Shown here: positions 13,329 through 14,162 of the stretch, piece after piece
Layout: each line of letters starts with the position of its first letter
Position numbering within the stretch: the first letter of the stretch is position 1
Assembly: GCA_965226795.1 (NCBI GenBank)
Contig: CBDDDZ010000005.1
Coordinates: forward strand, 2,848,001-2,912,000
Length of the DNA: 64,000 nucleotides
Origin: Candidatus Latescibacterota bacterium
GTDB lineage: Bacteria > Latescibacterota > UBA2968 > GCA-2709665
Direction of reading: 5' to 3'
Position numbers and translations under genes: made by a program
Notes under the pieces: model-generated
Databases searched by the model: none
The model's input: the letters and a program-made list of their open reading frames with translations, nothing else
What the model was told of the DNA's origin: nothing

Positions 13329-14162
13329 TTACGGCGCCTCCGGAACTTCCACCGGCAGATCCAGCCGGTCGCCCCATTCCTTCCACGACCCGATGTAGTT
13401 GCGCACATCTCGATAGCCCAGCAGGCGCAACGCCAGGTACGAATGGGAGGAACGGTACCCGCCCTGTCAGTAACATGCCACCGTCTGCTCCGGCGTCACA
13501 CCCGCCCTCTCGTACAAAGCGCGCAACTCCGCCGCCGGTTTGAAAGCGCCCGACTCATCCAGGTTGTTCAGATATTCGATATGCACGGCATCGGGGATGG
13601 CGCCGCCCCGGGCCGAACGCGCCACCCGCCCGTAATACTCGTCGTCGCTCCGCGTATCCAGCGGCACAAATCCCGCCCGTCCCAGCGAATCCCGAATCTC
13701 CTCGAAACCGATGTGGCGTTCCGCCACCTGCCCCATCTCGAACGTGGTCGTCTCCGGAATCAAAACCTCGAGAGTCGTCTCGTATCCCGCCGCCGTCCAG
13801 GCACCTAAGCCGCCGTCCAGAACCTGTACGTCGCGGTGCCCCATATACTCACAAATCCAGAAACCGCGCGCCGCCCGCATCCCGGAGTCGTTTTCGTAGA
13901 ACACCACCGTTTTGTCGGAACTGACTCCCCGGCTTCCCATCAGGTATGCCAACGTCCACATGAACCCTTCAAACGCCTCCCGCCCGGTGTTGTTCAGGCT
14001 GATCCCGTAGAGATCCAGGTGAAGAGCCCCCGGGATATGCCCTGCCACGTATTCGTGCGTGGGCCTGACATCCACGATGCACATCGATCCATCGTGGATG
14101 CGACCGTGCAACTGACCGGGTGTCATCAACAGATCCGAATTCGCATATCCTTTCGTGTTCAT
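13329..14162 (-). CDS. Two-domain rhodanese/sulfurtransferase (SseA/TST-like) with in-frame TGA at the catalytic Cys; probable selenoprotein
   Basis: AGGAGG precedes ATG at 14162. Motifs DVRP..EY..GHIPGA, LDGG..AW and LDTRS..EY are present. Reading through TGA at 13467-13469 gives [37 protein letters not shown]...EAP up to TAA at 13329-13331 (277 aa). Confidence 0.85.
13434..13461 (-). promoter_or_regulatory. Candidate bacterial SECIS stem-loop downstream of the UGA
   Basis: mRNA positions +6..+12 (CGGGUAC) pair with +27..+33 (GUACCUG), closing a 14-nt loop with G second. CAGG(+1..4)/CCUG(+42..45) could form a lower stem. Folded by eye only. Confidence 0.35.

Follow-up and report, generated by a model that had tools for sequence, protein, structure and literature searches.

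A selenocysteine rhodanese gene of a Latescibacterota bacterium and its probable split, looped-out SECIS within the coding sequence

Introduction

Published systems are summarized here as the accessible parts of the sources describe them. In reviews, the bacterial SECIS is described as lying immediately 3' of the UGA, and some bacterial selenoprotein genes are said to misfit this model. The bSECIS model specifies a 3-9 nt loop with G[G/U] in its first two positions on a 4-16 bp stem of -7.5 kcal/mol or below (PMC13188914), and BSepDB assigns a canonical element to only 87.4% of its entries, the rest being termed uncharacterised (PMC13326102). The functional stem of fdhF starts 11 nt after the UGA (PMC8659212), and the SECIS is unwound in its lower portion when the UGA is in the A site (PMC4513850). 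In the archaeal fdhA1 gene of Methanococcales, the SECIS is placed 43 nt from the UGA by "SECIS repositioning," which was not required in a reporter (PMC11881835). As for the enzyme, selenocysteine (Sec)-containing COG2897 sulfurtransferases have been listed from data sets of the Sargasso Sea (3 genes), GOS, and Olavius, a SECIS was predicted for the COG2897 member in the Sargasso paper, and a review table of 2026 includes a "form 4, UxxG" Sec rhodanese (PMC13188914).

Here, we describe a gene in a 64,000-nt stretch of a Candidatus Latescibacterota genome (GCA_965226795.1, contig CBDDDZ010000005.1, positions 2,848,001 to 2,912,000), which is referred to as the window. The predicted product is a PF00581 protein with the UxxG motif, in the form U-Q-G-G, and is a further member of the Sec COG2897/UxxG class, in which it is placed by this motif; MCY3690685.1 and AACY01016424 are reference sequences of that class. 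The class itself (COG2897, UxxG) has been predicted since 2005, and an earlier note on this DNA had already called Sec-containing rhodanese-like proteins a known class.

Results

An in-frame TGA at the catalytic position of a two-domain rhodanese

The gene and its main sites are as follows.

13329..14162, minus strand: two-domain rhodanese/sulfurtransferase gene, 277 aa with the UGA read through (predicted Sec232), assigned by PF00581, alignments, and a structural model
13467..13469, minus strand: in-frame TGA that occupies the catalytic position and opens the loop U-Q-G-G-Y-R
13473..13475, minus strand: Cys230 (TGT) at -2, a position that is not kept as Cys in all Sec forms
14169..14174, minus strand: GGAGGA, a ribosome-binding-like site 6 nt before the ATG

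The minus-strand frame opens with the ATG at 14162, encodes 231 aa to ...EQTVACY, meets the TGA (13469-13467), and continues for 45 sense codons, including those for YIGSWKEW, to the TAA at 13329. This confirms what the earlier note had read from the open reading frames, a stop after ...VACY with a 45-codon continuation, and the C-Y-U motif that it named is present. The GGAGGA site overlaps the 3' end of the upstream Gfo/Idh/MocA gene (TGA stop at 14167-14165), and translational coupling of the rhodanese gene to that gene is likely. A scan for promoters and terminators performed at chance level.

Two tandem rhodanese domains were recognized (PF00581 with two stretches, 123.6 bits), the genome scan also returned two matches, and no second two-domain rhodanese paralogue was found in the genome. 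In alignments with solved sulfurtransferases, which extend over the full protein, the TGA falls on the catalytic Cys of 3hzu, 3p3a (YCRIGER), and 1e0c (HCQTHHR), and the same alignments place the catalytic residue at the opening of a six-residue loop in the C-terminal domain, with the Y.GSW.EW motif after it, so that the position claimed earlier for the TGA was borne out. An AF2 model of the Cys-substituted protein, built on an 89-row alignment, had a pLDDT of 97.3 and a Foldseek TM of 0.87 to 1uar; a single-sequence AlphaFold model was discarded (pLDDT 34.6).

The codon was covered by contigs from all four runs available (3 studies), with no other letter at any of its positions. These were assembled contigs and not raw reads, and their agreement, including on the A of the TGA, excludes an assembly error. 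Contigs from RNA libraries contained the gene, which cannot show its transcription or the level thereof. In the public protein collection, the gene is represented only by a truncated 231-aa product (P0152), as had been anticipated for a standard gene caller, and 18 other proteins of 230-231 aa among the 120 best matches likewise stop immediately ahead of the catalytic column. When the whole genome was screened crudely, the TGA ranked 13th of 744 coding-like read-throughs and 1st of the 116 with a Cys-type motif.

Selenocysteine machinery and other candidate selenoproteins

The genes for the Sec machinery, selA, selB, selC, and selD, were all found in the genome. Those for SelA (562.6 bits), SelB (370 bits), both over their cut-offs, and tRNA-Sec (73.6 bits, anticodon UCA) lie together on contig C5, and selD, with an in-frame TGA of its own, lies on C4. 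The tRNA-Sec is the sole UCA tRNA of the genome. TGA is the commonest stop codon (2095 of the 4141 open reading frames passing the coding model), which indicates that the genetic code is standard. At its C-terminal end, SelB has a TRKYAVP segment, which we take to have a role in SECIS binding.

Eight other in-frame TGA candidates, chosen by eye from two crude screens that may have missed others, encode SelD, FdhA, an AhpD/CMD protein, two Rdx proteins, an AhpC-TSA protein, a Trx-like protein, and a DUF5069 protein. Family matches were obtained for seven of them; the Trx-like protein has none and its name is our own label.

C4:335819+, C5:1515570+, C5:656664-, C5:46475-, C5:3016047-, C5:1052168-, C5:1421522+, and C2:435839+: the eight candidates (L269-L276)

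In each of the eight, the UGA is followed at 17-24 nt by the G-led loop of a compact hairpin, and six of these hairpins reach -7.5 kcal/mol. A regular-expression search for further selenoproteins returned none beyond those of the two screens.

Some other observations were made in the genome. In L273 (C5:1051569-1052468), a UxxC AhpC-TSA/redoxin domain lies between a signal-like N-terminus and an Ig-like domain (choice-of-anchor D, with a weak OS_HP2 match), and its product is possibly an exported selenoprotein. An in-frame TGA at C5:2531741- separates two stretches that look coding and belong to a probable membrane protein (...PIWTHYF*NGTPYLQFY...), and it is more likely a nonsense change than a Sec codon. 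Two near-identical tRNA-Ser(CGA) genes, at C5:1971025-1971115 and 1983619-1983709, are 12.6 kb apart and are possibly the ends of an integrated element.

Retention of the TGA among relatives

The gene was present in all 41 genomes searched (its own and 40 relatives), with TGA at the catalytic column in 38 and Cys (TGC or TGT) in 3. The retention of TGA in 38 of 41 genomes excludes chance or decay, in agreement with the earlier note, which had seen no decay downstream, and the frame is intact. selA was found in 39 of the 41 genomes, the two without it being 80% and 91% complete, and selD was found in 40, the one without it being 98% complete. The selD match of one relative (L067, G036:C458:833-1756) has 2 TGA codons, not 1.

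In a sample of the phylum, 56 of 168 genomes had a match at E 1e-50, comprising 49 rows with TGA, one split match in which the TGA was seen separately, and six without a stop. TGA was likewise present in 76 of 80 GTDB loci, the titles of which are mostly Candidatus Latescibacterota and Poribacteria. The 80 metagenome loci found with a truncated, 51%-identical protein as the query were divided into 32 with TGA, 13 with Cys, and 35 without a motif match, giving TGA in 32 of the 45 with the motif.

For alignment, 184 loci were collected, of which 176 with full context yielded 113 distinct TGA genes and 17 distinct Cys genes sharing one catalytic column; one locus (L225) was dropped as a frameshift-ridden record. 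Representatives at less than 88% identity comprised 38 TGA and 13 Cys genes. A midpoint-rooted tree of 108 + 17 genes (5 were too short and were dropped) has 5 Sec/Cys changes, and several Cys genes are nested among TGA genes. The idea that Cys forms arise where the machinery is lost was rejected, since selA is kept in all 7 Cys-form genomes examined; Cys forms do not, therefore, track machinery loss.

That the TGA is a real stop, being a nonsense allele, the end of a truncated product, or part of a pseudogene, or that it is read as Cys or Trp, is extremely unlikely. A real stop would agree with the 231-aa products listed in databases, but it would remove the catalytic residue in a genome for which no second two-domain paralogue was found, and the TGA is kept among genes down to ~51% protein identity, whose frames remain unbroken beyond it and show synonymous turnover. 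Reading as Cys or Trp is opposed by the tRNA-Sec being the only UCA tRNA. Taken together, the TGA on the catalytic Cys, the presence of selA, selB, selC, and selD, and the TGA in 38 of 41 related genomes make Sec very likely; the decoding of the catalytic-site UGA as Sec, which the earlier note had proposed, is almost certain in our judgment.

The Cys at position -2

The same note had suggested that the Cys two residues upstream may act as a resolving thiol, and this was not supported by the comparison. Of the 113 TGA genes, 47 encode C at -2, 33 encode P, 17 A, and 16 S, and C is also found there in 6 of the 17 Cys genes and in 13 of 99 full-length Cys homologues; judging from these alignments, Sec does not need Cys-2 as a partner. 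A narrower possibility, compatible with the looped-out SECIS described below, is that within this subclade the Sec232 intermediate is resolved by Cys230, by way of a selenenyl-sulfide bond. It would fit the C-Y-U motif, which all 15 genomes of the genus and 22 of the 38 TGA relatives have, but is unlikely, given P, A, or S at -2 in 66 of 113 TGA genes, the occurrence of the same Cys in the Cys genes and homologues, and its position in the strand preceding the loop in the predicted model.

Examination of nearby SECIS candidates

Positions in the RNA are numbered from the UGA. The stem at +6..+33, proposed earlier as a candidate SECIS, can be drawn in this gene but is not conserved: it is 80% paired, with 269 of 500 shuffles as good, 30 of 38 sequences lack its C12-G27 pair, and it shows no covariation. 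Other structures near the UGA were likewise rejected in the 38 TGA genes as no better than shuffles, namely a +2..18 hairpin, a +25..57 stem, a +10..39 stem (for which a Cys control was also run), and a bulged +2..19 hairpin, which is 96% paired and has no double change. No conserved G-loop hairpin 16-37 nt after the UGA, that is, no canonical bSECIS, was found among the 38 TGA genes, and none of the structures near the UGA showed covariation.

We also applied the published bSECIS rules in our own implementation. This gene passed them, with a loop at 35 nt and -9.9 kcal/mol, but only 6 of the 38 TGA genes did so, compared with 58 of 120 ordinary Cys codons. Because the test is unspecific at this background, the pass was not used as evidence.

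Decoding through one of these nearby elements (+6..+33, +2..+19, or a GUU loop at +36), with the distal stems described below serving, for example, mRNA stability, is very unlikely. Besides the pass of the bSECIS rules, such decoding could draw on the +2..+19 hairpin, which is 96% paired in TGA genes vs 74% in Cys genes, and on the constrained third positions +33, +36, and +39 in TGA genes. However, the rules discriminate as poorly as the above counts indicate, not one of these stems beats its shuffles, and the 3' arm of +2..+19 is the stretch that covaries with +86..93. The +2..+19 hairpin would, moreover, be unwound with the UGA in the A site, going by the accessible text on that state (PMC4513850).

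Two covarying RNA stems downstream of the UGA

A long-range helix and a hairpin were found further downstream.

13448..13455, minus strand: 5' arm of the long-range helix (+12..+19, CCGUUCCU), starting 11 nt after the UGA; supported by covariation
13382..13447, minus strand: predicted looped-out coding stretch of 66 nt (+20..+85), which folds here, its inner structure being only partly conserved
13374..13381, minus strand: 3' arm of the long-range helix (+86..+93, AGGAAUGG), in K-E-W codons; supported by covariation
13351..13369, minus strand: SECIS-like hairpin (+98..+116), candidate SelB site, ACCGGC / UGGAUCU (13363-13357) / GCCGGU

The hairpin has 6 bp (+98..103 with +111..116), a 7-nt loop, and an energy of -13.4 kcal/mol; with the loop UGGAUCU, it thus has the loop, stem, and energy of the bSECIS model. 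All pairs of the two stems are present in 108 of 113 TGA genes vs none of 17 Cys genes. The GG of the loop is present in all 113 TGA genes but also in 11 of the 17 Cys genes. When mutual information (MI-APC) was calculated over 7503 column pairs, 99-115, 15-90, 18-87, and 100-114 took ranks 1-4, all of which belong to the two stems. Among the TGA genes (n=38), 98.7% of cells were paired with 41 double changes, and none of 500 shuffles was as high; the corresponding value for the Cys genes (n=13) was 70.3%, with 173 of 500 shuffles as high. The cross pairs 15-87 and 18-90 had an MI of 0.01, compared with 0.62-0.65 for the true pairs, indicating that GC drift does not explain the covariation. 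Tree-aware counts of co-changes were 6/6 for 15-90 (top of 1306 pairs), 3/3 for both 99-115 and 100-114, and 3/5 for 18-87, and one co-change was non-synonymous, pairing an Asp codon with Val/Ile. Double changes occur in only 4 of the 14 pairs, most stem positions being fixed by the protein and uninformative on RNA.

RNAalifold returned both stems without constraints, and only 0.28% of 20000 random synonymous recodings contained both. In this genome, all 14 pairs had a probability of at least 0.95 after removal of the first 9 nt, and the region folds at a z of -1.88. Synonymous constraint after the UGA was found in TGA genes only: the Tyr codon at +4 is the sole one of 31 two-fold sites without a synonymous change, and a purine/pyrimidine change is absent from just 5 of 58 sites, namely Arg+5, Ser+6, Leu+13, Arg+34, and Leu+37. 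Ser at +7, the codon of which supplies U19, is found in 111 of 113 TGA genes, and Ala in 15 of 17 Cys genes; a protein-level reason for keeping this Ser is possible.

In the linear sequence, the loop is 103 nt from the UGA, compared with 16-37 nt in the model, and with the 66-nt stretch looped out, it would be ~21 nt away (11 + 4 + 6, helix width not counted), which falls in the 17-24 nt range of the genome's eight other hairpins. All 38 of 38 aligned sequences are free of gaps in the arms and in the 4 nt that link them to the hairpin, a spacing that the reading frame also enforces. A search of Rfam over 12700-14700 gave no match at E up to 5. A covariance model of our own (R1) scored 137-145 bits for 4 TGA loci, which were in its training set, and 47-135 bits for 13 Cys loci; it adds little, since the scores mostly track coding similarity. 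As far as can be judged from sequence, the non-canonical fold is well supported, and the distal hairpin and the helix are probably the SECIS of this gene, with predicted binding of SelB.

Two smaller features were noted within the same region: a purine constraint at +33, +36, and +39 (13428-13434, +33..+39) and a possible proximal hairpin competing with the long-range helix (13448-13465, +2..+19), both stronger in TGA genes. They may represent inner helices or, instead, an alternative fold. Separately, one Cys gene (L156:3694-3822) has 8/8 pairs of the long-range helix, 5/6 of the hairpin, and Ser at +7, and looks like a recent Sec-to-Cys change.

Proposed mechanism of Sec insertion

We consider it likely that Sec232 is decoded with the aid of a looped-out SECIS, in which the 8-bp helix folds 66 nt aside and docks the GG-loop hairpin. 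With the UGA in the A site, ~11 nt would lie in or at the mRNA channel, so that the long-range helix would start at the channel mouth. The pairing of +12..19 with +86..93 would set the 66 nt aside and bring the +98..116 hairpin beside the ribosome, SelB-GTP-Sec-tRNA would bind the loop UGGAUCU ~21 nt from the UGA and deliver its Sec-tRNA, and, with the codon decoded, the ribosome would go on to unwind the two stems. Such a split of the SECIS probably has its cause in the codons directly after the UGA, which encode the fixed active-site loop QGGYRSS and leave little room for a G-loop hairpin. In general rhodanese chemistry, sulfane-sulfur transfer proceeds by a persulfide-type intermediate, the selenium counterpart of which is a selenenyl sulfide. 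Sec232 would accordingly take a sulfane sulfur from a donor (thiosulfate or a persulfide), form a selenenyl-sulfide intermediate, and pass the sulfur to a thiol acceptor, and by analogy the enzyme probably works like other rhodaneses.

It may also be supposed that the distal hairpin binds SelB without being positioned by the helix, which would cause a pause or act as a roadblock where the mRNA enters, or would protect the mRNA, with SelB acting by local concentration. The start of the helix right at the channel mouth (+12) would suit a roadblock, and a 3'-UTR SECIS, in work by Su from 2005, reportedly functions in E. coli, which would count for this explanation. It could further appeal to the archaeal repositioning flanks, described in the accessible text as dispensable for activity (PMC11881835). 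Nevertheless, we regard a roadblock as unlikely, since the looped-out spacing of ~21 nt agrees with that of the other hairpins in the genome (17-24 nt) and the arms and link are gapless in 38 of 38 sequences, although the reading frame also enforces the latter. Docking of the hairpin by the helix is, hence, the preferred explanation.

Genomic neighbourhood

By neighbourhood clustering, no neighbour gene was shared across lineages and no consistent substrate clue emerged. Lineage-specific neighbours include, in the Poribacteria group, which contains 2 loci titled "uncultured bacterium," a Cys/Met PLP enzyme in 13 of 36 loci and MoeA in 14 of 36 and, in the metagenome lineage, MbtH-like and 4'-phosphopantetheinyl transferase genes directly 3' of the rhodanese gene, each in 11 of 25; examples of the neighbours in these lineages are L141:4042-5337, L167:4183-5388, L185:3193-3558, and L229:624-1604. 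A 434-aa homologue (P0005) has an extra N-terminal domain of ~165 aa without a Pfam match, presumably cupin-like as judged by eye, fused to a Cys rhodanese. Other genes noted in the window are given below.

3266-7639, 7815-10096, 12787-13260, and 17257-22900: other window genes

Going by sequence, we take these to include genes for a WD40-like repeat protein of 1457 aa, for a tandem pair of dipeptidase-like paralogues, and for a CzcCBA-like efflux set; a convergent gene encodes an EVE-domain protein.

Discussion

The protein class is already known, having been predicted since 2005, and the part of greater import is the non-canonical RNA fold. It seems fairly probable that a natural bacterial SECIS can be split, with an intragenic helix looping out 66 nt and docking the SelB-binding hairpin at the canonical distance. 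If so, the codons beside the active site would be freed, while the RNA would in turn dictate amino acids, such as Ser for Ala at +7, and the element would represent a second class of bacterial SECIS, common to several phyla, that may account for part of the selenoprotein genes without a canonical element. The fold suggests making room for long-range pairing in SECIS searches, and it hints at how Sec might be placed in bacterial proteins while the codons beside the active site are left as they are.

With respect to the enzyme, the gene product resembles the Sec COG2897/UxxG proteins in its two-domain SseA-type architecture, in Sec at the catalytic position of a UxxG loop, and in having widespread Cys homologues; a looped-out SECIS is not mentioned in those passages of the Sec COG2897 literature that were covered. 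Thermus rhodanese (1uar), Mycobacterium tuberculosis SseA (3hzu), CysA3 (3aay), and the Azotobacter enzyme (1e0c) have the same fold (TM 0.84-0.87) and share the position of the catalytic residue and the C-terminal Y.GSW.EW with the gene product, whereas the solved Cys sulfurtransferases are 28-33% identical to it and have Cys instead of Sec and RIGER or QTHHR where QGGYR is found here. The NF041203 family (rhodanese_LYCAU, form 3, CxU) shares the Cys two residues before Sec, although, to go by the model name, its Cys and not its Sec would follow the Tyr at the catalytic position; identity with this 126-position single-domain model was rejected (34.5 bits vs a cut-off of 115), as was identity with NF008557 3-mercaptopyruvate sulfurtransferase (104.1 vs 250), NF040901 ExtH (73.7 vs 200), and NF045694 TsoB (19.1 vs 805).

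With respect to the RNA, a search of the full-text literature, which covered mostly papers outside subscription journals, returned no natural bacterial looped-out SECIS. Compared with the canonical SECIS, such as that of E. coli fdhF, as the accessible text presents it (PMC13188914, PMC8659212), the proposed element is alike in being a coding-region hairpin with a 6-bp stem and a 7-nt loop, with G-G from the second loop position, an energy under -7.5 kcal/mol, and a distance of 11 nt from the UGA to the first helix; it is unlike it in the distance of the loop from the UGA, which is 103 nt where the model has 16-37 nt, and in the intervening long-range helix. The closest parallels are the 3'-UTR SECIS reported for E. 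coli and the fdhA1 "SECIS repositioning" of Methanococcales; in the latter, according to the available passages (PMC11881835), complementary stretches would likewise bring a distant SECIS near the 3' side of the UGA. The Methanococcales system is archaeal, with a SECIS in the 5'-UTR and no SelB-SECIS tether, whereas the element proposed here is bacterial and lies wholly in the coding sequence.
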